40,703 nucleotides of DNA from Spirochaetia bacterium (GCA_046542935.1 JBKHAJ010000001.1:1-40703); one strand, 5' to 3'; positions 2,340 through 33,882 are shown, counted from the first letter of the stretch. The notes: a model not told the origin generated them from the sequence alone. Numbers and translations: made by a program.

Positions 2340-2399
2340 GCGCCGTCCGCGCCGGTGGGAAATAAAGATACGCAAAAACAAAGAAATAGGAGTTATTAC

Positions 2400-7189: not shown

Positions 7190-7564
7190 TTCCTCCCGCT
7201 CTTGAGCTCGCTCCCTGCACTTGGCGCATAGATTGGAATCGTGAAAGGCTATATCGTTGAAATCCATGGACGCGCTGCATTCCCGGCACTTGAACCGGAA
7301 GGGGAGTATCTTCTCACGGAAGATGTACATGATCGGCTCCGCGATTGCAACATATAAGAGAAGGAGGTAGTCGGAGAGCTCGAACTGAACGATCAGAATG
7401 CCCGCACAGTAAAGACCGAATACGATGATCGCCAAAAAGAGGATAGCCATCCGCTTCTTACGGGCCGTCCTCTGGTGCTTGCGGGAAAACACGTTCAAGG
7501 CGAGAACGCCTAAGAATACCCAATAGAAATTATCCGCGATAAACTTTGCAACTGGTTGTTCCAT
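7181..7564 (-). CDS. small membrane protein with C-terminal CxxC...CxxC zinc-ribbon
   Basis: Three hydrophobic helices are followed by CRECSASMDFNDIAFHDSNLCAKC. The 3' end overlaps the GGDEF-EAL stop by 9 nt (convergent). Confidence 0.55.
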   Translation of the reverse strand: MEQPVAKFIADNFYWVFLGVLALNVFSRKHQRTARKKRMAILFLAIIVFGLYCAGILIVQFELSDYLLLLYVAIAEPIMYIFREKILPFRFKCRECSASMDFNDIAFHDSNLCAKCRERAQEREESA

Positions 7565-12491: not shown

Positions 12492-13766
12492 ATGAAAGTT
12501 TTGTTGGTCGGCGCCGGAGGCGTGGGCGAAGCCGTGGTGCTTCTGACGGAGAAATACGCGACCCCCTGGCTGGAAAAGATGGTGGTGGCGGATTACAATC
12601 TTGCCCGGGCGGAGGAGGTAGCCGCCAAGACCAAGAAGTCCGCCCGGTATCCCGTGGAGAGGATCGACGCCTCCCAAAAGGAGGAGATCACGGCCCTGGC
12701 TAAGAAGTATGGGGTCGATATGGTCCTGAATGCCTGCGCCCCTCAATTCAATATGCCCATCTTCGAGGGATCTTTCGACGCGGGCTGCACCTACATGGAT
12801 ATGGCGATGAGTCTCTCGCAGAAGCATCCCACCGACCCCTACACGAAGACCCACGTCAAGCTCGGGGACTTACAGTATGAACAGGCCAAGCGGTGGGAGA
12901 AAAAGGGGCTCCTCGCGGTCTGCGGATCCGGTGTCGAGCCGGGGATGGTCAACGTGTTCGCTCGGTACGCCGCGGACCACCTCTTCGACGAGATTTACGA
13001 GCTCAATGTCCGGGACGGGGCCGACTTGGAGACCCGGGGGATCGACGCGCCCTTCGGTTTTTCCGTGTGGACCACTATCGAGGAATGCCTCAATCCACCG
13101 GTGGTGTGGGAGAAAAAGCGTGGATGGTATACCACCGAGCCCTTCTCCGAACCGGAGATCTTCAATCTTCCCGAGGGAATCGGACCGGTGGAGATGGTAA
13201 ATGTGGAGCACGAAGAAGTCTTGATGATGCCCCGGTACTTCCGGAACAAAGGCCTCAAAAGGGTCACCTTCAAATACGGCTTGGGAACGGAGTTCATCAG
13301 TCTCTTAGAAACCCTGCGCCGCCTCGGGTTGGATAAGACCGATCCCTTGACCGTTGACGGGGTCCGGGTGTCGCCCCGGGACGTGGTTGCGGCGGCCGCT
13401 CCGGATCCGGCTCGAATAGGCGAGGCCATGTACGGAAAGACCGCCGCGGGGCTGTGGGTGGTCGGAAAGAAAGACGGGTACGACCGTTCGGTGTATATCT
13501 ACCAGATCGCGGACAACCAGGAGTGCATGAAGAAGGTCGGCAGTCAGGCGGTGGTCGCCCAGACCGCCTTCAACCCCGTCATAATGATGGAACTCCTCGC
13601 GGAGGGGATCTGGAAGGGGACCGGAGTCCAGAATCCGGAGTACTTCCCCGCCGAGCCCTTCATCAGCCGCATGGAGTACTACGGATTTCCGCCGGGAATG
13701 GTGGAGATGGATTCCGAATACAAGGAGGCCGAGGATAGGGAGGCCTTCCGGGTGGGGCTTTCGTAA
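12492..13766 (+). CDS. saccharopine dehydrogenase-family NAD(P) oxidoreductase, paralogue 1
   Basis: Rossmann MKVLLVGAGGVGE. The GSGVEPGMVNVF block corresponds to G(L/F)DPG of LYS9 and carboxynorspermidine dehydrogenase. There is extensive block identity with the 28201..29511 ORF. GGAGGA lies before the ATG. Confidence 0.85.
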   Translation: MKVLLVGAGGVGEAVVLLTEKYATPWLEKMVVADYNLARAEEVAAKTKKSARYPVERIDASQKEEITALAKKYGVDMVLNACAPQFNMPIFEGSFDAGCTYMDMAMSLSQKHPTDPYTKTHVKLGDLQYEQAKRWEKKGLLAVCGSGVEPGMVNVFARYAADHLFDEIYELNVRDGADLETRGIDAPFGFSVWTTIEECLNPPVVWEKKRGWYTTEPFSEPEIFNLPEGIGPVEMVNVEHEEVLMMPRYFRNKGLKRVTFKYGLGTEFISLLETLRRLGLDKTDPLTVDGVRVSPRDVVAAAAPDPARIGEAMYGKTAAGLWVVGKKDGYDRSVYIYQIADNQECMKKVGSQAVVAQTAFNPVIMMELLAEGIWKGTGVQNPEYFPAEPFISRMEYYGFPPGMVEMDSEYKEAEDREAFRVGLS

Positions 13767-15043
13767 TGGAAAATGAAAGAAAAAAAACTGCAACTGCGCG
13801 CAATTTGAGCCCGGTGTGGTTCCGGGGTTCCTCGGTGACCGCCGTAAGGGGCGAGGGGATTTACCTCTATGATGATAGGGGCTCCCGGTATATGGACTTT
13901 ACCAGCGGGATCGCCGTAGTGAGCACCGGCCACTGCCATCCCCGTATTGTTGAGGCGATCCGCGAACAGGCGGAGCGCCTCATCTTCGGGCAGATCAACG
14001 TGGTCTATCACGACGCGGCCTTCGATCTGGCCTCGGAGCTCCTTGAGGTGGTGCCGCGGGGACATGACCAGTTCTTTTTTTCCAACAGCGGGGCGGAAGC
14101 GGTCGAGGCCGCGGTCAAGCTCGCCAAGCACCGGACAAAACGGACCAATATTATCGTCTTCCAGGGCGGATACCACGGCCGGACCCACCTGACCATGGGG
14201 ATGACCACCAGCAAGACGGTCTACAGGATCGGATACCAGCCCTTGGTTCCGGGGATCTTCGTGAGTCCTTACCCGGCGTCCTTCTCTTACGGGTGGGACG
14301 ACGAGACCACCCTGCGTTTCGCGGTGAGGGAGCTCGAAAAGCTCCTTGCCACTCAGAGCGCTCCCGAAGAGACCGCCTGCATCGTGGTGGAGCCGGTCCT
14401 CGGCGAAGGGGGCTACATTGTGCCGCCCAAGGGATTCCTCCGGGCGGTCCGGGAGATATGTACCAACCACGGCATCCTCATGGTTGCCGATGAGATCCAG
14501 TGCGGAGCGGGGCGGACCGGCAGGTTCTTTGCCGTGGAGCACGAAAATGTACTCCCCGACATCCTGGTATTCGCCAAGGGGATAGGATCGGGGATGCCCC
14601 TCTCCGGGATCGCTTATCCCGCCGCGATGGCCGACTCCTGGGTGGTGGGAAGCCACGGGGGTACCTACGGGGGAAATCCTGTGGCTTGTGCGGCGGCGGC
14701 GGAAACAATCCGGGTAATTCGGGACGAAGGGCTCGTGGAAAACGCCGCCGAGCGGGGAGAGCAGCTCCTCACGGGTCTTAAGAAACTCCAAGAGCGGTTC
14801 GACTTTATAGGCGACGTAAGGGGTCTCGGTCTTATGACGGCCGTGGAGCTCGTCGACGGCGGTGAGCCCGACGTGGAACGTACCAGGAAAGCGATAGCGG
14901 GGTGTCAGGAACGGAAGTTCCTCCTCCTTACCTGCGGCGCGGGAAAAAATGTCATCCGTTGGATGCCCCCGCTTATAGTCACGGAAGCGCAGATCGATGA
15001 GGCGCTCGCTGTCTTTACCGAGGTCCTGGAGGGACTCGGCTAA
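13766..15043 (+). CDS. class-III (omega-amine) PLP aminotransferase, GabT-like
   Basis: DEIQCGAGRTGRFFA and FAKGIGSGMPLSG (PLP-lysine region), plus SGAEAVEAAVKLA. The start overlaps the upstream stop (TAATG at 13764-13768). Confidence 0.9.
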   Translation: MENERKKTATARNLSPVWFRGSSVTAVRGEGIYLYDDRGSRYMDFTSGIAVVSTGHCHPRIVEAIREQAERLIFGQINVVYHDAAFDLASELLEVVPRGHDQFFFSNSGAEAVEAAVKLAKHRTKRTNIIVFQGGYHGRTHLTMGMTTSKTVYRIGYQPLVPGIFVSPYPASFSYGWDDETTLRFAVRELEKLLATQSAPEETACIVVEPVLGEGGYIVPPKGFLRAVREICTNHGILMVADEIQCGAGRTGRFFAVEHENVLPDILVFAKGIGSGMPLSGIAYPAAMADSWVVGSHGGTYGGNPVACAAAAETIRVIRDEGLVENAAERGEQLLTGLKKLQERFDFIGDVRGLGLMTAVELVDGGEPDVERTRKAIAGCQERKFLLLTCGAGKNVIRWMPPLIVTEAQIDEALAVFTEVLEGLG

Positions 15044-15050
15044 GGGAACC

Positions 15051-18000
15051 CTACAAGACCGTTTCGTTTCGCCACATCATCTCCGACGGGGGGGTTCCCG
15101 CGAGAAGCCGGTCTTTGAGCTCCACCGTCTTGGGGTCCGCGGCTATCCCGTATTGTTCGCTGAGGGCGGCATCCAGTTTTTCATAGATACGGGTAATCGC
15201 GGTGCGGTTTCCGATGGCGACGCTCGCTATCATGGAGAGTCTATAAGCCGGCTCGCAGAGGGGGTCCTTCGATATGAGGCGGTTAGCCCACTCGAAGCCC
15301 TTCTGCGGCCGGTTTGCCTTCAGGCAGAGCCTGGCTAAGCTGAACAAACTCTGTCTATACCTGTTTTTGAGGTTTTCCCGTTCGTCCCGCAGGTAATCGT
15401 GGTAGAAACCTCCCTCGAGGAAATCTCCGGTATAGAGCCCGGCGGCGGTCTCGTAGAGCTCGATTGCAGCGGAGGGATTAGCCTCTTTTTCGGCCCGTTT
15501 GGCCCTGTCAAGGCATTCGAGAAAATCATCGACATCCGCCGCGTAAAATTCCTCGTTGAGCTTGATAATGTTCATTTCGGTGGAGAGAAGCTCATGGTCA
15601 TTGCTTAAAATCTTTCTCAAGCGGTAGACCACGGTATTCAGATTGTCCCGGGCGCTCTTGTAGGAATACCGGGGCCAGAAGACATCGTAGACAACCTCCT
15701 TGGAAATCCCGTTTTTCCTGAAAACCAGGATAAGCTTTAAGAGATCGATGACCCGCTTCTGCCGGGTCAGGACCGATGCGGGAATCTCTTTTCCCTCTTG
15801 GAATATCTGAAACGCCCCGAGGGTCTTGAAATAGAAGGGGACCTCTTTCCCCTTAAAGGGATCCGTGGACACCGCCTTCGGGCGGGGATAGCGATGAAAC
15901 GAGGTAAAATCCTTTCCCGAGGCTTCGGCGATCTCGAGCAGCAGTTTCGGATTACAGATGTCCAGGTTCCGGTACCCCTTGGCGTCGAGGATCGCCGCCA
16001 TCGAAGCAAAGCGGCCCGCCGCTTCCTTCTTCCGCCCCTCCTTATGGGCTAGGAGTCCCGCGAGGGCTTCCGCGGTGGCCCGGGGATAGGGGTAGGAGTT
16101 AGGCGGGGTGTCGTCGAGGATTCGGGACAGGTATATACGGACCGCCTCCGGTTTGTCGAGGAAGAGGCACACCTCGCTCAAAGAGAGATAGCCGAAGGGG
16201 AAATCGGCCCTCAGCAGATTTTCGTTTTGATCCTCCATGAGCCGCTTACAGTAGTATTCCGCCCTGAGTTTGTTGCCTTTCCTGTATGAGATGAGCATCT
16301 GCAGGAGATAGATCCAAAAGTACTGGGCGTAGGGGTTATTGGCTATCTGTTTCCGTCGGAACCCCTCGAAGAGCTCCTCCGCCTCGGCCACCTCTTCCGA
16401 GTACAGGAGGTAGTAGATGAGATTGAGCTCCAAAAACCTCCGGAATGCGAAGGTCGGGTTCGACTCACCCAGCGCCTTTCGGGTTCTGTCGACCGCCTTA
16501 TCGATCTCCCCTAGGTAGAAGTGGGCGTCCCCGATAAAAAAGCTTAATAGCGGTTTGTAGAAGGCGGCCTCCTCGGAGTCTTCGAACACCCTTTCGGTCT
16601 TTTCGAGGAGGTCGAGGGACTCGTAAAACTCTCCACGGTCAATATAAAGCTTCGTCAGGACCAGCCGTGCGCAGAGAAAGGCTTCGAAGTTGTGGAACCG
16701 GTACGAGGTTTCTTCCGCTCTCAAGGCGGTCTCGAAGGATTCCTCCCGGCCGGGATAGACCGAGCCGGTGCCCAGGGCGATGAGGGTGTTGAGGATCTCG
16801 CATTGGGACGGCTCGAGTTTCAGCTTGTATTCGGCGATAAAGGCCGAAGCCTTTTCGATGAGCTCGTTTATGAGCTCCTCCTGTTCGAAGTAGAACAGGT
16901 AGTTCGTCAGGAGCTCGCTAAATATCCTGGCCTCCCGAGTGTAGTCTTTCTTGCGGTGAAAGGCGTCTAGGAGGGACAAGAGCTTTTCCCGGCTTGAAAA
17001 GGGTTTGACCAGGTTGGCTACGATCCCGTCGTAGTAGGCCATGTACAGGTCCGTTTCCTTTTCTTCCTCGGGAAAATAGGCGAGAAGGGTTTTTAAAGAT
17101 CCGTAGGAATTAGTCTCGAGCAGCTCGTCCGCGAGGGGGATGAAGTGATTCTTCGCCTCTTCCAAGGAACCCGCCGATGCGTAGAAGCGGACCGCCTTTT
17201 CGGTTTCCCGTTTTCCGGTAAAATACTTGGCCGCCGCCCGGTAGTGAGGAATTTTCTCCTCCTCCCTGCGGTTGGAAAAGAGTTTGGCGAGGTATTCCCG
17301 CAGGAGAGGGTGATACCGATAGCGTTCGGTTCCCGCAGGAAGAAGAAAAAGATGCCGGTCTAAGAGCTTGCTTAAAAGCGCCTCTCCTTCGGAATCGAAG
17401 AAATACCGGAGCAGATCCGAGTCAAAGGAGTCGAAAACGCTCAATGTTACGGCGTGGACGAATTCCTTCCCGTCCAAATGGTTCGAAAAGTGTTCCCGAA
17501 AAAAAGCATCGAGGACGGTAAGTCTTTTCGTTTTGAAGAAATGGTTGAGAATTTTCGACCTTGTCTCCTCATCCTTGAGGTACAGTTCTTCGAAGAGGTA
17601 GATGCACGGGGTTATCCACCCCTCGGTGAGCTCTCCTATCCGTTTTATGGTCTCTCCGTCGAGGCTGAGCTGATATTTGGCTTCGGCAAGGTCGGCGAGC
17701 TCCCTTTCGGTAAAGAGAAAGTCTTCTTCCCGAAGCTCTACCAGTTCTTTTTCCGCTCGTATGTTGCTCAAGAGCCCCGAAGGGATCGAGGAATAGATAA
17801 GAATAAAATGATACTCCCGGGGCAGCTCTTCTATGAAATACTCCAAAAAATCGGTAAAATCCCGGTTCCCGCAGCGGCTGTCGAGGTTGTCTATAACGAA
17901 AAAGATGTCCGGTGCCTTCCCCGACGATTCGGAGAACTCAAGGGAGAGCTTCTTTGCCGATTCGAGCACCCCCTTGAGGAGGATTTCGAGATCCTCTTCT

Positions 18001-18323
18001 TCGACCTTCGGGCCGGGGGGCGGTTCGGGAGCGGCCGAATCGATCCCCACTGTCCGGGTGAAGGCCTCGAAAACGAGGGAAAGAAAGTCCGCGGAGCTTG
18101 TGCATTCCTCGGTGGGGTTTATCCAGATGAAGGGAAGGGTCTCGGAGCTCAAAAAGTCCGCGGCGAGAATCGATTTCCCCGTGCCGAGCATTCCGTGAAA
18201 GAGAAAGACCCGCCGTTTACTCCGCTGTCTGAGATAGGATATCAAGTGTTCCCGGCGCAGGGTTTTTTCGAGGGAGGGAGGCAAAAATGAGTGCTGCCTC
18301 CATACATAACCTTTTTTCATCAT
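15051..18323 (-). CDS. large STAND/AAA ATPase-TPR transcriptional regulator with C-terminal SARP module (OmpR-type wHTH + BTAD)
   Basis: Walker A GMLGTGKS (nt about 18171-18194) and Walker B-like IFFVIDNLD. A long helical/TPR-like middle follows. The last roughly 263 aa (nt about 15054-15842) contain NLNTVVYRLRKIL (wHTH wing/recognition region) and the BTAD pattern LY.GDFL...DPLCEPAYRLSMIA. Confidence 0.8.
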   Translation of the reverse strand: MMKKGYVWRQHSFLPPSLEKTLRREHLISYLRQRSKRRVFLFHGMLGTGKSILAADFLSSETLPFIWINPTEECTSSADFLSLVFEAFTRTVGIDSAAPEPPPGPKVEEEDLEILLKGVLESAKKLSLEFSESSGKAPDIFFVIDNLDSRCGNRDFTDFLEYFIEELPREYHFILIYSSIPSGLLSNIRAEKELVELREEDFLFTERELADLAEAKYQLSLDGETIKRIGELTEGWITPCIYLFEELYLKDEETRSKILNHFFKTKRLTVLDAFFREHFSNHLDGKEFVHAVTLSVFDSFDSDLLRYFFDSEGEALLSKLLDRHLFLLPAGTERYRYHPLLREYLAKLFSNRREEEKIPHYRAAAKYFTGKRETEKAVRFYASAGSLEEAKNHFIPLADELLETNSYGSLKTLLAYFPEEEKETDLYMAYYDGIVANLVKPFSSREKLLSLLDAFHRKKDYTREARIFSELLTNYLFYFEQEELINELIEKASAFIAEYKLKLEPSQCEILNTLIALGTGSVYPGREESFETALRAEETSYRFHNFEAFLCARLVLTKLYIDRGEFYESLDLLEKTERVFEDSEEAAFYKPLLSFFIGDAHFYLGEIDKAVDRTRKALGESNPTFAFRRFLELNLIYYLLYSEEVAEAEELFEGFRRKQIANNPYAQYFWIYLLQMLISYRKGNKLRAEYYCKRLMEDQNENLLRADFPFGYLSLSEVCLFLDKPEAVRIYLSRILDDTPPNSYPYPRATAEALAGLLAHKEGRKKEAAGRFASMAAILDAKGYRNLDICNPKLLLEIAEASGKDFTSFHRYPRPKAVSTDPFKGKEVPFYFKTLGAFQIFQEGKEIPASVLTRQKRVIDLLKLILVFRKNGISKEVVYDVFWPRYSYKSARDNLNTVVYRLRKILSNDHELLSTEMNIIKLNEEFYAADVDDFLECLDRAKRAEKEANPSAAIELYETAAGLYTGDFLEGGFYHDYLRDERENLKNRYRQSLFSLARLCLKANRPQKGFEWANRLISKDPLCEPAYRLSMIASVAIGNRTAITRIYEKLDAALSEQYGIAADPKTVELKDRLLAGTPPSEMMWRNETVL

Positions 18324-18461: not shown

Positions 18462-19763
18462 ATGCGAAGCGGACCCATTTCAAAAAAGCTCTTCGATCGT
18501 GCTCGAAGTGTTATTCCCTGCGGGGTAAATTCCAATTTTCGCTATTGGGGAGATGATAAGACCCTCGTTGTCAAGCGGGGGGAAGGTGCATATATATGGG
18601 ACCAGGATGACAACAAGTACATCGATTACCGCCTGGGCTTCGGACCGGTTATCTTAGGACATGCGGAACGCGGAGTGACCGGCCGAATCCGAGAGGCCCT
18701 TGAGATGGGGAACACCTTCGCCATGACTAATGAATACGAAATCTCAGTGGCCGAGAGGATTAGGGAGCTCACCGGTGTCGACATGGTGCGGTTTTCCAAT
18801 ACCGGGACCGAGGTTACCATGCACGCCATCCGGATTGCCCGGGCCTTTACCGGCCGGGAAAAGATCCTCAAATTCGAGGGGCATTACCACGGTTTTCATG
18901 ATTATACCCTGTGGAACTGTTATCCCCCCATCCCCGGGGCCGGTTACCGAAGAGACCCGGTGCTCGTGGCTCACGGCTCCGGAATCCCCAAGGTGATAGG
19001 CGACCTGGTCTATTCCCTTCCCTTTAACGACTTCGGTCTGGTGGAAAAGAAGGTTCGTGAGCAGTGGGGTGATATCGCCTGCATCATCATGGAGCCTATC
19101 ATGGGAAATACCGCATCTATTATGCCTCAGAAGGGTTTTCTCGAAAATATTCGGAAACTGTGCGACCAATTTGGGATACTCCTTATCTTCGACGAGGTAA
19201 AGACCGGATTCAGAATCGCCAAGGGAGGGGCCCAGGAATTCTTCGGCGTCAAAGCGGACATCGCCACGTACGCCAAGGCCCTGGGGAACGGATTTCCCGT
19301 AGCCGCCATGGGCGGAAAAAGGGAGATCCTCTCCGAGATCGGCCCGGGGAAGATCCCCATGGGGGGGACCTACACCGGGAATGCCGTTGCCGTCGCGGCC
19401 GCGGACGCCACCCTCGAAGCCGTCCAAAAGGGGGCCTTGGAAAAGGTCGATGCGCACGGCAAACGGCTGATGGAGGGAATGCGGGAAATATTCGACCGGC
19501 GGGGGGTGCCCGCGGTCATTCAAGGACCGCCGTCGATGCCCGGCGTCGTCTTCACCGAACGTGATACGGTGGATGAATACCGTGATTGGGCGGAGTCGGA
19601 TCATCACACCTACGAGGAGGTCATCCTAGGCCTCTTCGAGCGGGGGGTTATGCCGGACAAGGACTCCCGGGAGCCCTGGTTTGTCTCCGCGGCGCATTCG
19701 GACGAAGACGCCGATTTTGCGCTCAATGCCTTAGACGATACCCTTAAGGAGGTGCTCGAGTAG
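18462..19763 (+). CDS. class-III PLP aminotransferase/aminomutase, HemL-like but divergent
   Basis: FDEVKTGFRIAKGGAQEFFG and YAKALGNGFPVAAMGG parallel HemL FDEVMTGFR / GKIIGGGxPVGAFGG. The N-terminal CGVNSNFRYW differs from HemL GGVNSPVRAF. AAGGAG lies upstream. Confidence 0.85.
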   Translation: MRSGPISKKLFDRARSVIPCGVNSNFRYWGDDKTLVVKRGEGAYIWDQDDNKYIDYRLGFGPVILGHAERGVTGRIREALEMGNTFAMTNEYEISVAERIRELTGVDMVRFSNTGTEVTMHAIRIARAFTGREKILKFEGHYHGFHDYTLWNCYPPIPGAGYRRDPVLVAHGSGIPKVIGDLVYSLPFNDFGLVEKKVREQWGDIACIIMEPIMGNTASIMPQKGFLENIRKLCDQFGILLIFDEVKTGFRIAKGGAQEFFGVKADIATYAKALGNGFPVAAMGGKREILSEIGPGKIPMGGTYTGNAVAVAAADATLEAVQKGALEKVDAHGKRLMEGMREIFDRRGVPAVIQGPPSMPGVVFTERDTVDEYRDWAESDHHTYEEVILGLFERGVMPDKDSREPWFVSAAHSDEDADFALNALDDTLKEVLE

Positions 19764-19860
19764 CCGTTCTTCTATCGCACATGGCGGACGGCAAATCGAT
19801 ATGGTAAAAAAGTTTATGTAAAAAAGTGCTTCAACACCAAAACTATAGGAGGAAGGAGCT

Positions 19861-21390
19861 TTGGATGAGATTGTTGTAAGACTGCACTTTGTAGACTGGA
19901 TCGTAATTGCCATCTACATCGGTTTCATGCTTTTCATCGGTTTCTGGTTCAATAAACGGAAGCAGGGATTCGATGACTACTTCATGGCGGGACGAAACCT
20001 GACCGCCCCGCTGTTGGTGGGGACCCTGGTGTCGACATTTTACGGTCTGGACACTCTTTTCGGGACCTCGGAGGTAGCGTTCTTCGAGGGAATCAGCGCG
20101 TTCTTCGCGTATTCACTGCCGTATACGGTGATGTACATCGTCATGGCTATCCTGTCGCCCAGGTTCAAGGATTTGTTCCCCAAGGGCACCACAATGCAGG
20201 AAATCACCACCAACAAATACGGAAAGAAGGCGGGGTTGTTCACCTCCATCGCGGCGTTCATCTACTCGACGAACACCATGGAGATGATGGGAATCGGGTT
20301 CATTCTCCATCTAGTCGCGGGGATCCCCTTCTGGATGGGAACTTTGATAGGGGCGATTATCGTCATCATCTACACCTGGACCGGCGGGCTGTGGGCGGTC
20401 ACCATGACCGACTTCATCCAGTTCATCGCCATGATGATTACGGTGGGACTTGCCCTTATCATCGGATGGAGGGCCATCGGAGGATTCGATCAAGTGATGG
20501 TCGGACTTTCCGAATACGCCGGCAGCACGGAGGATGCCGTCTACTTCTTCCGGGTAGGGGCGGGGTATCTTACCCCATGGACCCTATTCGCCTACTCCCT
20601 GACGGCCTTCGCCGTCCTTGCGGAACCGGCGTTCTTCCAGAGGATGTTCGCTTCCGCAGGCCCCAAGGAGATAAAGAAGGCCTTCGGGGCCGGTGTTCCC
20701 ATGTGGCTGAGCTTCGATTGGGCGGTGACCTTCTTAGGACTCATGGCCGCCGCCGCGGTGGGACTCGGAATCATCCCTGAGGTCGAGGCCAACGAGGCGC
20801 TTCTCGCCATCGTCGGGCAGTATCTGCCCATCGGTATCATGGGTATCTTTATTGCGGGCGTCTTGGCCTGCGCCATGTCCACCGCCGACAGTTACTTCTT
20901 GGTAGCGGGAGGAGTAGTCGGATACGATATCTACAAAAAGATGATCAATCCGAAAGCCGACGACAAGAAGATCGAGCGTGTTACCAAGTACGGTATCTTG
21001 GGTTCCGCAGCACTATCTCTGCTGCTGTCTTTCACCTTCGAGCGGATCATGGAGGTGTGGGTCTTTCAGGCGACCATCATCATCACCACCGCGCTCATAC
21101 CGGTGTACTTCGGAGCATTCTCCAAGAAGGCCCCGAAAAAGATCGCGGGAACTCTGGCCACCATCATCGGACTTGTCTTGAGTCTCATCTGGTACATCTG
21201 GTCGAACTTCTTCGGAAAGTGGAGTGATGACTGGGAAGTCTACGTCATCAGGATCGGCGGGGTCGAGTTCTGGCAGGAGTATGGAATTATCATCATTACT
21301 CCCATCGTCCTTATCATTTACCTGATTGCCAATGCCGTGGGTAAGAAGACGATGGAGAACGCGCCCGAGGCAGGAATACTGGAGGATTAA
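19861..21390 (+). CDS. sodium:solute symporter (SSS) family transporter
   Basis: A 509-aa polytopic protein with an SSS-like N-terminus DWIVIAIYIGFMLFIGFWF..FMAGR. A TTG start at 19861 sits directly after GGAGGAAGGAG. No in-frame ATG upstream of TM1. Confidence 0.8.
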   Translation: MDEIVVRLHFVDWIVIAIYIGFMLFIGFWFNKRKQGFDDYFMAGRNLTAPLLVGTLVSTFYGLDTLFGTSEVAFFEGISAFFAYSLPYTVMYIVMAILSPRFKDLFPKGTTMQEITTNKYGKKAGLFTSIAAFIYSTNTMEMMGIGFILHLVAGIPFWMGTLIGAIIVIIYTWTGGLWAVTMTDFIQFIAMMITVGLALIIGWRAIGGFDQVMVGLSEYAGSTEDAVYFFRVGAGYLTPWTLFAYSLTAFAVLAEPAFFQRMFASAGPKEIKKAFGAGVPMWLSFDWAVTFLGLMAAAAVGLGIIPEVEANEALLAIVGQYLPIGIMGIFIAGVLACAMSTADSYFLVAGGVVGYDIYKKMINPKADDKKIERVTKYGILGSAALSLLLSFTFERIMEVWVFQATIIITTALIPVYFGAFSKKAPKKIAGTLATIIGLVLSLIWYIWSNFFGKWSDDWEVYVIRIGGVEFWQEYGIIIITPIVLIIYLIANAVGKKTMENAPEAGILED

Positions 21391-21391
21391 T

Positions 21392-21520
21392 ATGGGATGG
21401 AATGTATTCAACTACATATTCGGAGCAATATGTATTATCGGACCTATTTGTCTCATTTTCTGGTACGGAGCGGCCGCTAAGCAGCGGATAAAAGAGATGA
21501 AGGCAAAAAACGGCGAATAG
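21392..21520 (+). CDS. 42-aa single-TM peptide, possible symporter accessory subunit
   Basis: ATG 21392 lies 1 nt after the symporter stop and is preceded by GGAGGA. The sequence MGWNVFNYIFGAICIIGPICLIFWYGAAAKQRIKEMKAKNGE has one hydrophobic helix and a basic tail. Confidence 0.5.
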   Translation: MGWNVFNYIFGAICIIGPICLIFWYGAAAKQRIKEMKAKNGE

Positions 21521-21522
21521 CC

Positions 21523-21589
21523 GCAGGTAAAGCAGGTAAAAAAGCTAAATAGGTAAAAAGGAGAAAGGACCGGCCTTCGGGCCGGTCCT
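21523..21589 (+). repeat. tandem GCAGGTAAA direct repeats plus GC-rich hairpin in the intergenic spacer
   Basis: GCAGGTAAA at 21523-21531 and 21532-21540, with a third degenerate copy ATAGGTAAAAA at about 21549-21559. A perfect 10-bp stem AGGACCGGCC/GGCCGGTCCT (21566-21589) has a TTCG loop. Confidence 0.6.
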
Positions 21590-21626
21590 CCTTGTCGGGC
21601 TGATCAAAAGAAAAAAGGAGATTCCC

Positions 21627-22844
21627 ATGAAAGTTGTTGTGCTCGGAGTAGGTGCTCAGGGAAGCATTATCGCGACCCGTCTGGATGAAGAACCCGCCGT
21701 TAAGGAGCTCATCTGCGCCGACTACAATATTGAGGCGGCGAAACGGTTGGAAAAGAACCTGAAGAAGGCTAAAGCCGTTCAGGTAAACGCGAAAAACAAA
21801 GAGGAGGTAAAGAAGGTAACCGAAGGGGCCGCTCTCTTGGTCAACGGGCTCCCGCCGGATTTCAATATCACCCTGATGGAGGCGGCCCTGGAGAACGGCT
21901 GCAACTACCAGGACATGGCGTCGGGGCCGGTGGAGGATATTGATTTTATTTCCGCGGTGAAAAGGCAGCTCACCATGGACGGTAAGTTCAAACAGGCGGG
22001 CTTGAGCGCCCTCTCGAACACCGGATCGGCCCCGGGACTGGTCAACGTCCTGGCGAGGCACAGCGCCGATCAGATGGACTCGATCGAGCATATCTCCATC
22101 ATGGTTTACGACGGGATATGGACGAACCGGTTCATCCCCTTTTGGTGGTCTCCGGAGACCGCCTTCGGCGATATGGCCGCCGAGCCTATCAACTACCGAA
22201 ACGGAAAGTGGGAACGCGTTCCCCCGTACAACGATCCGGTTATGGAGGATTTCCGGGGGGTCGGTAAGCGGCGGATGGTGGACCACGAACACGAGGAACC
22301 GGTCACCTTCGGCATCCACGCCGACCGGGTCTTCAAGGGGTGTCCGAATGTGAGCTTCAAATACGGCGGACCCGCTTTAGAGCTCTCCGAATCGTTCTAC
22401 AAGATGGGGCTCCTCGGAAGGGAGCCGGTGGAGGTGAACGGGGTAGAGGTAACCCCCCTCGATCTGGTGTGCAGGCTGACTCCGCCCGCCCCGAGCAGCC
22501 CCGAGGCCATCCGTGACGCCCTGTCCGAGGGAATGGCCTTAGAAGAGGGAGCGGCGGTGGTCCGCCTCGACGGGACTGTACAGGGAAAACCGGTCCGTTT
22601 CGAAAACTACATCAACGCCCCGGGTTTAACGGAATCCTTCGAGAAGTACGGAATAACCCACGAAACTTTCTTGACCGGGCAGTCGGCGTTCCTCTTTACC
22701 AAGATGTTCGTCAACGACAAGATCAAAACCAAAGGGGTTTTTACACCGGAGCTCTTCGAAAAACCGGAGAGGGACTACTACCTCTCAGAGGCCGCGAAGA
22801 TCGGCATAACCGTAGATCAGATCGTAGAGACGAGATTGTTTTGA
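21627..22844 (+). CDS. saccharopine dehydrogenase-family NAD(P) oxidoreductase, paralogue 2 (divergent)
   Basis: Rossmann MKVVVLGVGAQGS, GSAPGLVNVLARH block and VDHEHEEP (cf. VEHEE in the other two paralogues). AAGGAG lies upstream of the ATG. Confidence 0.8.
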   Translation: MKVVVLGVGAQGSIIATRLDEEPAVKELICADYNIEAAKRLEKNLKKAKAVQVNAKNKEEVKKVTEGAALLVNGLPPDFNITLMEAALENGCNYQDMASGPVEDIDFISAVKRQLTMDGKFKQAGLSALSNTGSAPGLVNVLARHSADQMDSIEHISIMVYDGIWTNRFIPFWWSPETAFGDMAAEPINYRNGKWERVPPYNDPVMEDFRGVGKRRMVDHEHEEPVTFGIHADRVFKGCPNVSFKYGGPALELSESFYKMGLLGREPVEVNGVEVTPLDLVCRLTPPAPSSPEAIRDALSEGMALEEGAAVVRLDGTVQGKPVRFENYINAPGLTESFEKYGITHETFLTGQSAFLFTKMFVNDKIKTKGVFTPELFEKPERDYYLSEAAKIGITVDQIVETRLF

Positions 22845-28200: not shown

Positions 28201-29511
28201 TTATCCCAAAATCTCCTTGAAAATCTTCTTGTCCTCGTTCCGCTTGTACTCGGAGTCCTTTTCGACTATGCCGTAGGGGAAATCGTATTCCTCCATGAGC
28301 GCCATGTACGGCTCGGGGGGGAAGCCCTCCGGGGCGTGGACCCCTTTGACCTCTTTCCATACCCCGGTGCCCAAGAGCTCGATGCCGACGGCCGCGCCGA
28401 AGCCGGTCTGGGCGACCACCGCCTGCATTCCCAACCGTTCCATGGTGTCCCGGTTGTCCAAGGCCTGGTAGAGGAAGACGTTCCGGTCCAAGCCGTTCTT
28501 TTTCCCGTAAACGTCGATACCGACACACATTTTTCCGTGCATCTTTTCCCCCAAGTCGGTGGGTTGGGGCGCCACCGCGGCGACCACGTCCCGGGGACGC
28601 ACCGTGCATCCGCCGACTTCGGCGGGCTCGAGGCTGCGGAGTCCTAAGGCGTCTATGACCTTGAGGGCATGAATAAGCTCGTCGCCCAAGGCGATCTTGA
28701 AGGTGCACTTCTTGAGTCCCTGAGAGGCGAGATATTTAGGCATAAAGACCGTCTCTTCATGCTCGACCTTGACGAGTTTCTGCGATCCGACCCCCTCGGG
28801 GAAGTCGAAGCTCTCCTCCCCGTCGAAGGGAGGCGCGGTGTAGTATCCCTTCTGACCGTTTATGGTGTACCCCTCTCTTGATGAGTCCCAGGCGACGTTG
28901 GGGTTCAGGCACTCGTCCAAGACGGTCCACACGTTGAAACCGAAGGCGATTTCCATCCCTTCGACCTCGAGATTGTCGCCGTCTTTGACGTGGATCTCGT
29001 CGAGCTCGTCGAATAGGTGTTTCGCCGAGAACGCCGCGAAAACGTCCACCACCCCCGGGTCTATTCCGAAGCCGATCATCGCGGTTCGACCCTTCTCGAG
29101 CCACTCCCCGTGGCGGGCGAAGTTGTACTCGCTCATCCATTCTTTGTACGGCTTGCCGAAGGGGTCGGTTTCGTCGGGGACCGACCAAGTCCCCATGCTC
29201 ATATAGTCGCAGTCCGCTTCGAAGGCGGCGTCGAAAATGTTGTTCGAAACGAAGGGCGCCGCCGCGTCCATGATAAAATCGGTATCGTGGCTGCGGGCCG
29301 TGTCGACGATACTCCTTTTGTCGGTTGCATCGAGGCGGACCGGAACGTACCGGGGGCCGCCCCCGAGGCGCTTCGCCACCTCCTGCGCCTGTTTTTCGTC
29401 GTAGTCGGCGAGGACCACCTTTTCGAGCCACTTTCCTTCGGTGTCGCGGGAATTAAGAATTTTCGCAATAGATTCTCCCACCCCGCCGGTGCCGACCATC
29501 ATCATTTTCAT
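28201..29511 (-). CDS. saccharopine dehydrogenase-family NAD(P) oxidoreductase, paralogue 3
   Basis: Rossmann MKMMMVGTGGVGE, plus GFGIDPGVVDVF, VEHEE, RPRDVVAAVAP, QAVVAQTGF and EKDSEYK, all shared blockwise with paralogue 1. GGAGGA lies upstream. It starts 21 nt downstream of the AOR stop. Confidence 0.85.
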   Translation of the reverse strand: MKMMMVGTGGVGESIAKILNSRDTEGKWLEKVVLADYDEKQAQEVAKRLGGGPRYVPVRLDATDKRSIVDTARSHDTDFIMDAAAPFVSNNIFDAAFEADCDYMSMGTWSVPDETDPFGKPYKEWMSEYNFARHGEWLEKGRTAMIGFGIDPGVVDVFAAFSAKHLFDELDEIHVKDGDNLEVEGMEIAFGFNVWTVLDECLNPNVAWDSSREGYTINGQKGYYTAPPFDGEESFDFPEGVGSQKLVKVEHEETVFMPKYLASQGLKKCTFKIALGDELIHALKVIDALGLRSLEPAEVGGCTVRPRDVVAAVAPQPTDLGEKMHGKMCVGIDVYGKKNGLDRNVFLYQALDNRDTMERLGMQAVVAQTGFGAAVGIELLGTGVWKEVKGVHAPEGFPPEPYMALMEEYDFPYGIVEKDSEYKRNEDKKIFKEILG

Positions 29512-29532
29512 TCTGTTCCTCCTCTGCTGCTT

Positions 29533-31344
29533 TCAGTCCATCCGGGACAGATATGCCTCGTAAGCTCCGACAAACTCCTCTTCGATGCCGAGATTCCGGA
29601 GTTTCTCCGGCATCGGGCGGCCCCGCTCGTCCCAGCCGCGGAAGGCGTAGTATTCGTCCATGGCCCGGTCGAAGGCTTCCCGGGTCATCGGCTTGTCCTT
29701 GGGAGGACCCTCTTTGAGGAGCTCCTCGTAGAACCGTTTGGGGAGTATATCTTCCGACCGGTCGAAGCCGGCCATGATGTTGAACATCCGCTGGAGGTTG
29801 AAGATCCGCTCGCCCATGGTGTCGACTTTCTCCGCAGGCCACTCCCCTCCGTAGGTCGCCGCGTAGAGGCGGCCCAAGGTCTCGCTCGAAACCGGCCAGA
29901 AATCGCAGATTCCCATGGAGAACTTGGCGAATTGGGCGTTCTGCATTTCTGCGACCAGCTCCGCTTTCCCTTCGAAGGTAAAGGGGTCCAGGGTTCCCCA
30001 GGCCTCCTCGGCGATAGGGTAGGCGCTCATGTGGCATCCCCCCCGGGGGGCGGTAACGTAGGCGATCCCCATGCCCCAGGAGCCCCGGGGATCGTAGCCG
30101 GGGAGTTCGAGACCTTTTACCTGCATGGCGTATTCGGGGGCTCCGTATTCGGCGGCGAGGCTTTTAGATCCGTAGGCGGCTTTGTCTCCCAAGCCGCGGC
30201 GATGGGCGATATCCTCGAGAAGATTCAAAGCCTTGTCGACCTCCCCGAAACGGATATCGAAGTCGTGGATGCCCTTCTCAGTCGCCTCCATCATGTAGGC
30301 GATGGTCCCCCCGGCGGAGATGGTGTCCAGTCCCAGATCATCGCACCGGGCGTTGAACTCGATGAGCTTTTCTCTGCTCCCGTTGCCGATGGATGAGCCG
30401 CCTAGGGCGATGGTCTCGTACTCCGGTCCCTCCACCCGGGCCCGACCGTCGGCTACGTAGTTTCCGCAGGCGATTCCGCAGGAGAAGCAGGCCTTTTTGT
30501 TTTGCCTTACCGATTTGAGGCTCGTCCCGTCGATGGCCTTGTATTCCGAAAAAGTCCCCTCCTGGAAGTTGTAGGTGGGGAGGAGCCCCGAATCCTGGCT
30601 GAGATCGACTAAAACGGGGGTGCCGAACTCGTAGATCTCGTTTCCCGGAGCGGTTACCTCGTCCCGCTCGTGGAGCTCCGCGGCTAACGCCATACAGCCT
30701 TCGACGTCATCAACATGAACATCGAGCCATCCCCGGACGGCCACCGCCTTGAGGTTCTTATCTCCCATCACCGCGCCGATACCCCCGCGGCCGAGCTGCC
30801 GGTAGCGCTCGGAGGAGATGCACGAGTAGAGGACCCGGTTCTCCCCGGCCGGGCCTATGCACATGATCTTGACCTTATCGTCGGCCAAGGCGGATTTGAG
30901 CCCCGATTCGGTATCGAAGGTCCCCTTGCCTGTATATTCGGATGCATCCCGGACCTCGGCCCGGTCAGGGTCTATATAGATGTAGGACGATTTCTCGGCC
31001 CGGCCCCGGATCACCACGGCATCGTAACCCGCGTACTTGAGCTCGGCCCCGATGTGCCCTCCCACACTTCCGTCGGTTATGGTTCCGGACTGGGGGGATT
31101 TCGTCGCCACGGCGAGCTTCGCGGTGCACGATACGATGGTTCCGGCCATGATCGAAGTGGCCAGCACGATGCAGTTGTCCGGTGAAAAAGGATCGGTATC
31201 GGGGGTTATCTCGTCCATGAGAATCCGTGAGGCCAGTCCCTTCTGTCCCGCGTAGAGATCCACCCACTCTTTGGGGGTTTCTCGGACCTCGACGGTCTTC
31301 GAGCTCAGATCGACGTAGAGCATCTTTCCCATAAGACAATTCAT
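29533..31344 (-). CDS. aldehyde:ferredoxin oxidoreductase (tungstopterin AOR family)
   Basis: The AOR N-terminal domain pattern is GKMLYVDLS...YAGQKGLASRIL...GGHIGAELKYAGYDAVVIRG. The [4Fe-4S] ligand motif is CFSCGIACG. Its 603 aa matches the length of AOR sensu stricto. The start has an ATGA overlap with the ferredoxin stop (alternative ATG at 31332). Confidence 0.9.
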   Translation of the reverse strand: MNCLMGKMLYVDLSSKTVEVRETPKEWVDLYAGQKGLASRILMDEITPDTDPFSPDNCIVLATSIMAGTIVSCTAKLAVATKSPQSGTITDGSVGGHIGAELKYAGYDAVVIRGRAEKSSYIYIDPDRAEVRDASEYTGKGTFDTESGLKSALADDKVKIMCIGPAGENRVLYSCISSERYRQLGRGGIGAVMGDKNLKAVAVRGWLDVHVDDVEGCMALAAELHERDEVTAPGNEIYEFGTPVLVDLSQDSGLLPTYNFQEGTFSEYKAIDGTSLKSVRQNKKACFSCGIACGNYVADGRARVEGPEYETIALGGSSIGNGSREKLIEFNARCDDLGLDTISAGGTIAYMMEATEKGIHDFDIRFGEVDKALNLLEDIAHRRGLGDKAAYGSKSLAAEYGAPEYAMQVKGLELPGYDPRGSWGMGIAYVTAPRGGCHMSAYPIAEEAWGTLDPFTFEGKAELVAEMQNAQFAKFSMGICDFWPVSSETLGRLYAATYGGEWPAEKVDTMGERIFNLQRMFNIMAGFDRSEDILPKRFYEELLKEGPPKDKPMTREAFDRAMDEYYAFRGWDERGRPMPEKLRNLGIEEEFVGAYEAYLSRMD

Positions 31345-31751
31345 TCCTTTACCCTCTCCCTATCCCGGACGGATATGACGTCCTTCGGACACCACTCGAC
31401 GCATTTCGGCTCGCCTCCGCACAGGTCGCAGATAATCGATTTCTTGTTTTCATTCAGATAAATAACCTGCGTGGGGCAGGTTCGGACGCAGGTGCCGCAG
31501 CCGATGCAGGTGTCGTGATCCACCTCCATCCAGCGCCCGGTGTTTCGTATCGAATCGGTCGGACATGCCTCCTCGCACTTTCCGCAGAGGGTGCAGTGCC
31601 GCGATTTTATCCGAACGCCGTCGTCGGTATACTCGTGGATGATCTCGAGCCGGGCCTTCTGCGGATTGAACACCCCGTCGTGAGAGCCGGAGCAGGCGAG
31701 CTCACATAGTTTGCACCCCGTGCACTGGGAATAATTGAATCTTAAGGGCAT
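31341..31751 (-). CDS. polyferredoxin, four [4Fe-4S]-type Cys motifs (AOR electron-transfer subunit-like)
   Basis: The four Cys clusters are CTGCKLCELAC, CTLCGKCEEACP, CIGCGTCVRTCP and CDLCGGEPKCVEWCP. GGAGG lies upstream of ATG 31751. Confidence 0.9.
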   Translation of the reverse strand: MPLRFNYSQCTGCKLCELACSGSHDGVFNPQKARLEIIHEYTDDGVRIKSRHCTLCGKCEEACPTDSIRNTGRWMEVDHDTCIGCGTCVRTCPTQVIYLNENKKSIICDLCGGEPKCVEWCPKDVISVRDRERVKE

Positions 31752-31868: not shown

Positions 31869-31896
31869 TTGACTTTTCATCCCGCCGGGTTATCAT
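31869..31896 (+). promoter_or_regulatory. candidate sigma70-type promoter for the ThiS/MoaD-like gene
   Basis: TTGACT (31869-31874), 16-nt spacer, TATCAT (31891-31896). The predicted TSS is about 31903-31905, at the GTG. Confidence 0.35.
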
Positions 31897-31904
31897 TGCA
31901 GGAC

Positions 31905-32108
31905 GTGCTTCGAGTGAACGGCAGGACAATTCCCTGGCATGAGGGAATCACCTTTCCCGAGATCTACTCCGCCTTGGGTTACACCCTGAGCGAACCCCTG
32001 GTCGTGGTCCGGGTAAACGGAACGCTTGTCGATAAGGGGAAAAGGGAAGGTTTCTCCATTCCCGACGGCGCGGACATCGAAATTATAAACAAGCTTCGCG
32101 GGGGATAA
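31905..32108 (+). CDS. ThiS/MoaD-family ubiquitin-like sulfur-carrier protein
   Basis: The C-terminus ends ...INKLRGG-stop (diglycine). The length is about 67 aa if GTG 31905 is used (MLRVNGRTIPW, cf. ThiS M.I.VNG). Start is uncertain (TTG 31869 / TTG 31896 / GTG 31905 / GTG 31914) and there is no clear SD. Confidence 0.65.
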   Translation: MLRVNGRTIPWHEGITFPEIYSALGYTLSEPLVVVRVNGTLVDKGKREGFSIPDGADIEIINKLRGG

Positions 32109-32148: not shown

Positions 32149-33882
32149 ATGATTAACAAACGTATACTGGCGGCGGGAGTGCTCTCCATCGCGGTGATCG
32201 TAGGATTTGTGATGCTCCAAAATCGGGTCATCAGCCCCAAGGCGGCTCCGCCGGAGGCTCCCGGCGAGGTAGCGCAGGACGAGCAGCAGCCCGTGGAGCA
32301 GTTCGATGACCCGGCTGAAACCCGTGTCCCCGCTCTCGCGGAACTCCCGGAGCTCGACATCGCTCCCGCGGGAGCACTTCCCGGCGGGGAGCAGACCGCC
32401 CGGACGGTGCGCCTGGAAACGGGGGTCTACACGGCGGAGTTCTCCACCAGGGGTGGTACGGTCTCGTCCCTTAGGCTTAAAAGTTTTACAACCCCCGAGG
32501 GACAGCCCGTCGAGATGATTTTAAACGGCTCTTCCGAAATCTTGCCTTTCACCCTCACCTTCGGAAACGTCCACAACGAGCCGCTCGATGAGATCTTCCG
32601 AAGCTCCGTGGATGAGGAGAGGGGGGAAGTCCGCTTTTCTAGGGACTTCGTCGTCGACGGTCGTACCTTTACCTTGGAAAAAACGTACACTTTCCCCCCC
32701 GACGAGTACGCGATGCGCTTAGCCGTCACCATGACCGCCGCCGACGGAGAGGATCTTCCCGTAAACAGGAATGGAATTTCCTATACGGTGAGCTTCGGAC
32801 CCCAGATAGGACCTACCTACACCAAGCTCGACGACAGGAGTGATTACCGCTACTACAGCTTCTTCGACGGTGAAGAGAAGAAGAGCATGCGTACTTCCAC
32901 CGAGAAGATTACCCACATCGAGGAGGAGATGGAGTGGACCTCCGTCGAGGGAAAATACTTTACCGTCATCGGGGTCCCTACGGAATCCCACTTCATAGTT
33001 ACCGACTCTACACCGGCCGCGGGAGTGGACAGGCACTCTTCGTTCCATTTCACCTTTCCCGAGATCGATGCCTCCCGGCATTCCAGTGAGACTTACTTTT
33101 ATATAGGACCTAAGAAGAAGGAACAGCTTTTTAGATACAACCGGGCGGATTCGAATTACTTCGGCCTCGAAAACATGCAGTTCGATACCATGGCTTCCAA
33201 CGTCAAGATCTTAGGAGTTCTCTCGGAGATCTTAGGGGGTATTATAACGGGTATTCGCTACGTGACCCGGAACTACGGCCTTGCGGTCATCCTCTTCGCG
33301 GTCATAGTACGTCTGGCTCTCATTCCCCTGTCATGGCGAAACTTCCGGGACAACCGGAAGATGCGGGAGCTCGAGCCCAAAATTGCCGAGATACGCCGAC
33401 GCTACCAGTACAACGGAGCTCAGGCCAATCAGGAAATTACCGAGCTCTACCAGCGTGAGAAGATAAGCTCACTACGGAGGCTCCTCCCGCTGTTTATTCA
33501 GATCCCCATCATCATAGCCCTCTTCAGACTGTTTTCCACCGACTTCGATTTCAGGGACGCCGCTTTTCTCCCGGTCTGGATCGAACGCCTCTCCTCCCCC
33601 GATTCGATAGTGGAGTTTCCCTTCACGGTGCCCGTGGTCAAGTGGGATGCCTTGAGAATTCTTCCCTTTATCATGCTGGCAACGACCCTGGTGCAGACCC
33701 GGATTACCCAGCCGCCGGCCGAGGGGAGCACCGGGCAGAAGATCATGTCCTACGCGACCCCGATCCTCATCTTCCTGATCCTGTACAACATGCCCTCGGG
33801 GCTGGTTCTCTACTGGCTCGTCTACAACGGATTGGGTATCGCCGAACATTACGTCTTCCGGAGGCGGTACGAGGAGTCTTGA
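32149..33882 (+). CDS. yidC: membrane protein insertase YidC (long periplasmic-domain form)
   Basis: An N-terminal TM and a large P1-like domain are followed by a C-terminal 5-TM Oxa1 core. The core has the characteristic RLALIPLS..R....M..L.P and PSGLVLYWLVYNGLGI motifs. Confidence 0.9.
   Translation: MINKRILAAGVLSIAVIVGFVMLQNRVISPKAAPPEAPGEVAQDEQQPVEQFDDPAETRVPALAELPELDIAPAGALPGGEQTARTVRLETGVYTAEFSTRGGTVSSLRLKSFTTPEGQPVEMILNGSSEILPFTLTFGNVHNEPLDEIFRSSVDEERGEVRFSRDFVVDGRTFTLEKTYTFPPDEYAMRLAVTMTAADGEDLPVNRNGISYTVSFGPQIGPTYTKLDDRSDYRYYSFFDGEEKKSMRTSTEKITHIEEEMEWTSVEGKYFTVIGVPTESHFIVTDSTPAAGVDRHSSFHFTFPEIDASRHSSETYFYIGPKKKEQLFRYNRADSNYFGLENMQFDTMASNVKILGVLSEILGGIITGIRYVTRNYGLAVILFAVIVRLALIPLSWRNFRDNRKMRELEPKIAEIRRRYQYNGAQANQEITELYQREKISSLRRLLPLFIQIPIIIALFRLFSTDFDFRDAAFLPVWIERLSSPDSIVEFPFTVPVVKWDALRILPFIMLATTLVQTRITQPPAEGSTGQKIMSYATPILIFLILYNMPSGLVLYWLVYNGLGIAEHYVFRRRYEES

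Follow-up and report, generated by a model that had tools for sequence, protein, structure and literature searches.

The 40,703-nucleotide stretch of a Spirochaetia bacterium analysed here (GCA_046542935.1, JBKHAJ010000001.1:1-40703; hereafter the window), whose nearest genome matches are uncultured Spirochaetales, carries on its minus strand three tightly packed genes that encode, in order, a ferredoxin-like protein (Fdx), an aldehyde oxidoreductase (AOR) and a C-N oxidoreductase, SDH3, related to carboxyspermidine dehydrogenase (CASDH). Gene families, conserved residues and the neighbourhoods of homologous loci suggest, with a probability we put at about one half, that AOR oxidises the aldehydes arising in an anaerobic pathway of amine catabolism, encoded by a gene set whose CASDH-like enzymes would work in the oxidative direction. 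The aldehydes would come from these enzymes, from omega-transaminases, or from both. An earlier reading of this DNA (the original prediction) had proposed that the amino-aldehyde released by SDH3 is the physiological substrate of AOR. This narrower claim now appears rather doubtful, as the aldehyde could be supplied by the transaminases as easily as by SDH3.

Gene coordinates were obtained from open reading frame (ORF) listings and reverse-strand sequence reading, and families were assigned with Pfam. The first gene of the operon, coding for the 136-aa Fdx protein (31341..31751, minus strand), is preceded by an AAGGAGG ribosome-binding site and its stop codon overlaps the AOR start codon as ATGA (31344-31341). 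The gene coding for the 603-aa AOR (29533..31344, minus strand) ends with a TGA at 29535-29533, and the one coding for the 436-aa SDH3 (28201..29511, minus strand) begins with an ATG at 29511-29509. The minus-strand spacer between them (29512-29532) is 21 nt long, contains no hairpin and carries a GGAGGA (29522-29517) located 5 nt ahead of the SDH3 ATG. The packing is as originally described. Consensus scans revealed no promoter-like sites between the three genes and, at the aor-SDH3 junction, nothing resembling a terminator; terminator-like matches were in total fewer than expected from shuffles, and the only one on the minus strand (31482-31464) falls inside the Fdx ORF. RNA folding gave a z of +0.86 against shuffles for the junction, whose structure is therefore not unusual, and no significant structure was detected in the operon 5' leader or the SDH3 3' flank by promoter and terminator scans or by folding. 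Because of the overlap, the short spacer, the lack of an intervening terminator or promoter and the unstructured junction RNA, the three genes very likely constitute one transcription and translation unit in the window genome, in support of the chaining first proposed.

AOR contains AFOR_N (1e-71, 241 bits) and AFOR_C (6.8e-121, 404 bits) domains, both far above cutoffs, and its best solved relatives are Pyrococcus furiosus AOR (PfAOR; 1AOR, 429 bits over residues 6-589), 9MQX and Aromatoleum AorB. Equivalents of PfAOR Cys288, Cys291, Cys295, Cys494, Glu313 and His448 are all kept in the alignment, within the motifs CFSCGIAC (C288/C291/C295), PEYE (E313), GGCH (H448) and GICDF (C494; PfAOR numbering). 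By these domains and residues, which uphold the initial family assignment, AOR is a canonical member of the tungsto/molybdo-pterin AOR family, the metal not being assignable from sequence alone. The Fdx protein, initially labelled a polyferredoxin, contains 16 cysteines in four CxxCxxCxxxC-type motifs, predicted to bind four [4Fe-4S] clusters, belongs to multiple Fer4 families and matches AorA (8c0z_C, 5e-22), the small subunit of WOR5 (6x1o_B, 3e-20) and 9mqx_E. It has the size (~130-190 aa), the four CxxCxxCxxxC(P) motifs and the position immediately upstream of the catalytic subunit that characterise AorA and WOR5-S, and such a small subunit precedes AOR at every orthologous locus examined. 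We correct the label accordingly: judged by these features, Fdx is the AorA/WOR5-type small electron-transfer subunit of the enzyme and not a free polyferredoxin.

The window thus shares with P. furiosus AOR (1AOR), WOR5 (6X1O) and Aromatoleum AorAB (8C0Z) full-length AFOR_N/AFOR_C domains, the cysteine ligands of the [4Fe-4S] cluster and the catalytic glutamate and histidine, and with WOR5 and AorAB a small subunit with 16 Cys that is encoded upstream and translationally coupled. Aromatoleum AorABC differs by its FAD/NAD subunit AorC: no AorC-like subunit is encoded in the window operon, and a scan of the window ORFs revealed no gene of Pyr_redox type. Membership in an AorABC-type NAD-linked complex was rejected, since no third, FAD/NAD-binding subunit is encoded together with the AorA/AorB-like genes. 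The scanned ORFs include no tungstate transporter gene. While known AOR systems are set in an aromatic- or peptide-derived aldehyde context, that of the window is found in a context of amine metabolism. Divergent from Fdx-AOR are a ThiS/MoaD-like sulfur-carrier gene (31869..32108, plus strand; ThiS match), probably involved in maturation of the pterin cofactor, and yidC (32149-33882). Both are kept in this divergent position across spirochaete relatives (65-93% identical). ThiF/MoeB accompanies ThiS at four of the homologous loci, which are designated here by L numbers (L093, L094, L098 and L099); the interval between ThiS and Fdx, which holds ThiF/MoeB in relatives, is only a 117-nt gap in the window.

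SDH3 matches Sacchrp_dh_NADP (8.8e-13) and Sacchrp_dh_C (2.6e-19). The description "saccharopine-dehydrogenase-type" originally given to it reflects only the name of this Pfam superfamily, as structural matches and catalytic residues mark the protein as CASDH-like. Its sole strong structural relatives are the CASDH structures 4RL6, 4INA and 8DEB (~1e-40, aligned over the full length at low identity). The His228-Glu229-Glu230 triad and Glu188 of BfCASDH are specific to CASDH, being found in neither saccharopine reductase nor lysine 6-dehydrogenase (PMC10413350). SDH3 keeps the triad as H251/E252/E253 and the Glu188 equivalent as E200, all invariant in 27 of 27 homologues, while the relay residue Ser144 is replaced by Val155. 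Assignments of SDH3 as a saccharopine dehydrogenase/reductase or as an L-lysine 6-dehydrogenase were rejected, given that the CASDH structures alone match strongly, that 3ABI is absent from the matches and that the triad is present. At the positions of BfCASDH Ser34/Thr36/Lys39, which bind the 2'-phosphate of NADP, the alignment places Asp36/Asp38/Gln41 in SDH3, and Asp36 is kept in 24 of the 27 homologues. NAD preference is classically marked by an aspartate at the end of beta-2. Because Asp36 occupies this NADP-binding position, SDH3 is predicted to be NAD-type, which points to a catabolic role. SDH3 is probably a distant, NAD-type relative of carboxyspermidine dehydrogenase and likely performs CASDH-type chemistry, that is, the interconversion of an aldehyde plus an amine with a secondary amine. 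The apparent length of 582 aa of SDH3 in L001 is an artefact, the gene containing a run of N (7290-7392, a scaffold gap) flanked by an exact 55-nt duplication in the public metagenome-assembled genome.

The window encodes three CASDH-like paralogues, SDH1, SDH2 and SDH3. SDH1 (12492-13766), 46% identical to SDH3, forms a plus-strand module (12492..15043) with the class-III aminotransferase gene AT1, to which it is translationally coupled by an ATGA overlap at 13766, and this pair probably belongs to the same pathway as the AOR operon. An operon-like run on the plus strand (18462..22844) is composed of AT2, coding for a HemL/GntE-like class-III aminotransferase, an SSF Na+/solute symporter gene and SDH2. 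A large MalT/BTAD-type regulator gene (15051..18323, minus strand) lies between these two amine modules and is syntenic in L006, L092, L093 and L094. The best explanation for these genes is a dispersed amine gene set comprising Fdx-AOR-SDH3, SDH1-AT1, the regulator and AT2-SSF-SDH2, to which the transporters and the MalT-like regulator would lend a catabolic flavour. AT2 (18462-19763) scores 554 bits against the NCBIfam model GntE (guanitoxin transaminase; cutoff 525), whereas its L099 orthologue falls below the cutoff at 513 bits. No other part of the window looks like a guanitoxin cluster, and the GntE model is probably unspecific.

Among AOR orthologues (65-73% identity), Fdx-AOR is kept, usually with ThiS/ThiF and in spirochaetes also with yidC, and the gene following AOR varies, being SDH3, AT2, or a gene coding for a LysR regulator, a DUF3783 protein or a glutaredoxin. 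Orthologues of the SDH1, SDH2, AT1 and AT2 modules, not of SDH3, recur beside AOR elsewhere. This AOR clade is found near CASDH-like and class-III aminotransferase genes in three non-syntenic arrangements. The first is that of the window, where Fdx-AOR-SDH3 is near SDH2-SSF-AT2, the regulator and AT1; in L093 and L094, AOR stands directly beside AT2 (70%), the regulator and AT1 (61%). The second, L098, encodes a PotF-like polyamine-binding protein, an SDH1 orthologue (66%), an agmatinase (460 bits, above cutoff) and a putrescine aminotransferase (624 bits for a cutoff of 612, equivalog-level), all divergent from Fdx-AOR. In the third, seen in L099 and L100, an aminotransferase gene, the four genes of a Na+-translocating MmdA-type decarboxylase and the gene of a CoA-acylating aldehyde dehydrogenase come before ThiF-ThiS-Fdx-AOR, after which follow a 191-aa ORF and an AT2 orthologue (62%). 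Three tandem SDH2-like genes converge on this run, and the region (L099 467-15851, and L100) resembles a full locus for energy-conserving omega-amine fermentation. L095 has only an SDH2 orthologue, 4.6 kb from AOR. In L092, the SDH1-AT1 operon runs on into an acylating aldehyde dehydrogenase gene. Because the L092 and L099 modules carry CoA-acylating aldehyde dehydrogenases, aldehyde intermediates needing oxidation are implied. As a rough estimate, which is not a computed statistic, such co-location would occur by chance at ~1-3% per locus, assuming few copies of each family per genome of ~3000 genes and ~14 genes per neighbourhood.

The L098 locus reads as one for agmatine/putrescine catabolism in which AOR would take the place of the aminobutyraldehyde dehydrogenase of Escherichia coli. 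Like the E. coli PatA/YgjG plus PatD pathway, it would rely on a putrescine aminotransferase, here encoded with a PotF-like protein and an agmatinase beside Fdx-AOR, with AOR replacing PatD. It differs from that pathway in that the locus lacks an NAD-dependent aldehyde dehydrogenase, so that the oxidant would be a ferredoxin-type acceptor, and in its additional CASDH-like enzymes. Our literature search returned no report of a PatA-like pathway with an AOR in the position of PatD.

From what was observed directly, namely the anatomy of the genes, their families, their conserved residues and the statistics of their neighbourhoods, we infer the substrate, the direction of the reactions and the source of the aldehyde used by AOR as follows. 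A polyamine-like or omega-amino compound would be imported, as suggested by the SSF symporter of the window and the permease and PotF-like protein encoded elsewhere. The NAD-type CASDH-like enzymes, given their catalytic triad and the aspartate at the NADP-binding residues, would then oxidatively convert a secondary amine into a primary amine and an (amino)aldehyde, while the class-III omega-transaminases, according to the function of their family, would convert primary amines into further aldehydes. Finally, as family chemistry and intact active-site residues suggest, AOR would oxidise the aldehydes to omega-amino or dicarboxylic acids, and its four-cluster subunit would relay the electrons to an acceptor of low potential. 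A thermodynamic pull of this oxidation on the amine cleavage, as originally proposed, would be a further conjecture.

The adjacency of aor and SDH3 itself was surveyed across SDH3 homologues. A single-protein search of genome contigs yielded 4 loci only, and a broader alignment-based survey of metagenome contigs was added, for 92 loci in 38 clusters at 90% identity. AOR adjoins SDH3 in only 3 of these clusters, L001 (SDH3 93% identical), L006-8 (65%) and L013 (64%), which have a common synteny, YidC-ThiS divergent from Fdx-AOR-SDH3, and represent one spirochaete lineage. The adjacency, which the original prediction proposed to look for in other genomes, recurs within the confines of that lineage. 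Near SDH3 homologues in the other 35 clusters, the recurrent neighbours are an APC-type amino-acid permease gene (directly downstream in 10 clusters) and an SSF symporter gene (2-4); an aldehyde dehydrogenase gene occurs near the homologue in one. The permeases match generic APC-family models only and give no clue to the substrate.

Several observations weigh against a pathway that joins AOR to SDH3-type enzymes. AOR is found within the flanks in none of the 35 other clusters, 25 of which include at least 2.5 kb of upstream sequence. In L005, the closest distinct relative (71% identity), SDH3 stands alone in an unrelated context with no AOR; in a neighbour-joining tree, this gene is sister to that of the window, inside a clade otherwise having the adjacency, which is therefore ancestral to this small clade and was lost once. 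Conversely, four AOR orthologues lack SDH3 (L093, L094, L096 and L097), and neither L096, with a LysR regulator and nothing related, nor L097 (Desulfobacula), with a permease, an acyl-CoA dehydrogenase and an MtaA-like gene, has a Sacchrp_dh or aminotransferase gene near AOR. The aor-SDH3 spacers of L006 (145 nt) and L013 (113 nt) contain strong terminator-like hairpins with U-tracts (RNA folding; dG -38.4 and z -7.7 in L006, dG -28.3 and z -5.3 in L013). Gene order in this lineage is strongly conserved by descent, and this conservation extends to the unrelated yidC. Furthermore, AORs are broad-spectrum enzymes that do not require a specific partner, and only four independent arrangement classes were sampled. 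In both spacers (L006 7856-7925, L013 5880-5935), a small GGUCCGU(A/U)GGACC hairpin precedes the long GC-rich hairpin and U-tract; the window has lost both.

A terminator between aor and SDH3, which would sever the originally proposed link, is missing from the window, while terminator-like structures are present in the orthologous loci of L006 and L013. Because the spacers of these relatives are long and bear hairpins, the 21-nt spacer and tight coupling are taken to result from compaction that occurred recently in the window species and its 93% relative, and they define neither family. That aor and SDH3 are immediate neighbours says little for their coupling, since this adjacency is lineage-restricted, relatives have terminator-like structures and the synteny preserves the unrelated yidC. 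Of the functional pairing of AOR and SDH3 proposed at first, the chemistry predicted for the SDH3 clade, which would interconvert a secondary amine with an aldehyde and a primary amine, and the presence of the AOR clade near CASDH-like genes still speak in favour, while the absence of AOR from L005 and the 35 clusters speaks against.

Elsewhere, SDH3 homologues show a different association. In 14 of the 38 dereplicated clusters (L009 7696-7872; L010 7673-7851; L034 5640-5814; L072 5685-5860; and ten further loci), an SDH3/SDH1-subfamily gene is immediately preceded on its 5' side by the glycine-GGAnGA variant riboswitch (RF03166, 133-178 bits), and in Firmicutes the CASDH-like subfamily is the main gene behind this riboswitch. 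The gene so preceded is often followed by an amino-acid permease gene, many of these loci are human-gut contigs, and in L034 a hairpin and U-run come after the aptamer. The Firmicutes riboswitch is absent from the window region searched, as an Rfam search of positions 12000-32300 at the gathering threshold and at E<=1 returned nothing. No paper tying the riboswitch, or glycine-GGAnGA, to the SDH3 enzyme family, or dealing with its ligand, was found in our literature search, and the main text of the paper introducing glycine-GGAnGA does not discuss it. The association provides an independent experimental handle on the substrate of the enzyme.

The same evidence may be read in other ways. Fdx-AOR, with ThiS/ThiF, could be a self-contained broad-spectrum aldehyde scavenger downstream of which SDH3 landed by historical accident, to be compacted later without any metabolic coupling. 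The conserved core of the AOR loci, YidC-ThiS-(ThiF) divergent from Fdx-AOR and followed by a variable gene, fits such a history, as do the terminator-like hairpins in L006 and L013, the solitary SDH3 of L005 and the partners of SDH3 homologues elsewhere, which are a permease and a riboswitch but never AOR. Yet the three unrelated arrangements in which AOR is near CASDH-like and class-III aminotransferase genes would hardly arise by chance for families of few copies, and selection has kept the aor-SDH3 junction and tightened it in the window species; we therefore regard an accidental association as possible, though rather unlikely. SDH3 might otherwise be a divergent carboxy(nor)spermidine dehydrogenase serving housekeeping polyamine synthesis, unrelated to AOR. 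Its best PDB and NCBIfam matches are indeed CASDH and carboxynorspermidine dehydrogenase (CANSDH), and it shares with them (8DEB, 4RL6, 4INA) full-length homology at ~1e-40, the His-Glu-Glu triad and the Glu188 equivalent. This role is nonetheless improbable. SDH3 differs from CASDH/CANSDH by its low identity, by a replaced relay serine and NADP-site residues and by its score against the carboxynorspermidine synthase model NF043000, 148 bits for a cutoff of 800, which SDH1 (170 bits) and SDH2 (72 bits) also miss. In addition, the window has three paralogues, set alongside transaminases and transporters, and no decarboxylase partner, carboxy(nor)spermidine decarboxylases (CASDC; Orn/DAP/Arg decarboxylase family) being found neither among the window ORFs nor among the neighbours of the 38 homologue clusters, where the homologues pair with permeases and riboswitches instead.

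A biosynthetic pathway would use the same enzymes in the opposite direction, AOR reducing an (amino)carboxylate with reduced ferredoxin and SDH3 condensing the resulting aldehyde with an amine into a polyamine-like secondary amine. AORs are known to be reversible, acid reduction being established in acetogens and Pyrococcus, and the agmatinase of L098 is also known from polyamine biosynthesis. Moreover, every characterised CASDH runs in the condensing direction (PMC10413350, PMC11999265). The NAD-type aspartate carried by SDH1, SDH2 and SDH3 in place of the Ser/Thr/Lys of the biosynthetic CASDH and the lack of a carboxy(nor)spermidine decarboxylase in the window nevertheless make biosynthesis improbable, as does a context that looks catabolic (uptake transporters, MalT-like regulator, putrescine aminotransferase, acylating aldehyde dehydrogenases, Na+-pumping decarboxylase). 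Outside the amine genes, two 398-aa ORFs of the window, at 2355-3551 (plus strand) and 3636-4832 (minus strand), have no Pfam match at E<=0.001.

All components of the proposed amine-catabolic gene set come from known families, and what would be new is the pathway context for this AOR clade and the CASDH-like enzymes. No paper linking AOR with saccharopine-dehydrogenase-type enzymes was found in our literature search, nor any relevantly linking AOR with putrescine or aminoaldehydes. Known polyamine catabolism proceeds through O2-dependent oxidases, acetylation or glutamylation routes, or NAD-dependent aminoaldehyde dehydrogenases, and polyamine degradation by strict anaerobes in sediments and guts is, to our knowledge, poorly defined. 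We speculate, as an unlikely extension, that anaerobes have an O2-independent route for polyamine-type secondary amines, in which NAD-dependent CASDH-like C-N cleavage and omega-transaminase deamination would be followed by a tungsten-type AOR that replaces NAD-dependent aminoaldehyde dehydrogenases and yields reduced ferredoxin; the ligand of the Firmicutes glycine-GGAnGA riboswitch could then be a substrate or product of the enzyme. Should the link between AOR and SDH3 be only positional, the tight operon would reflect compaction at the species level, and it ought not to be carried over into pathway annotations. If true, the module of CASDH-like enzymes, omega-transaminases and AOR would represent a testable oxygen-free route. 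It would also provide a physiological substrate class for a widespread clade of bacterial AORs, and a function for the many proteins, abundant in human-gut contigs, that are wrongly annotated as "saccharopine dehydrogenase".

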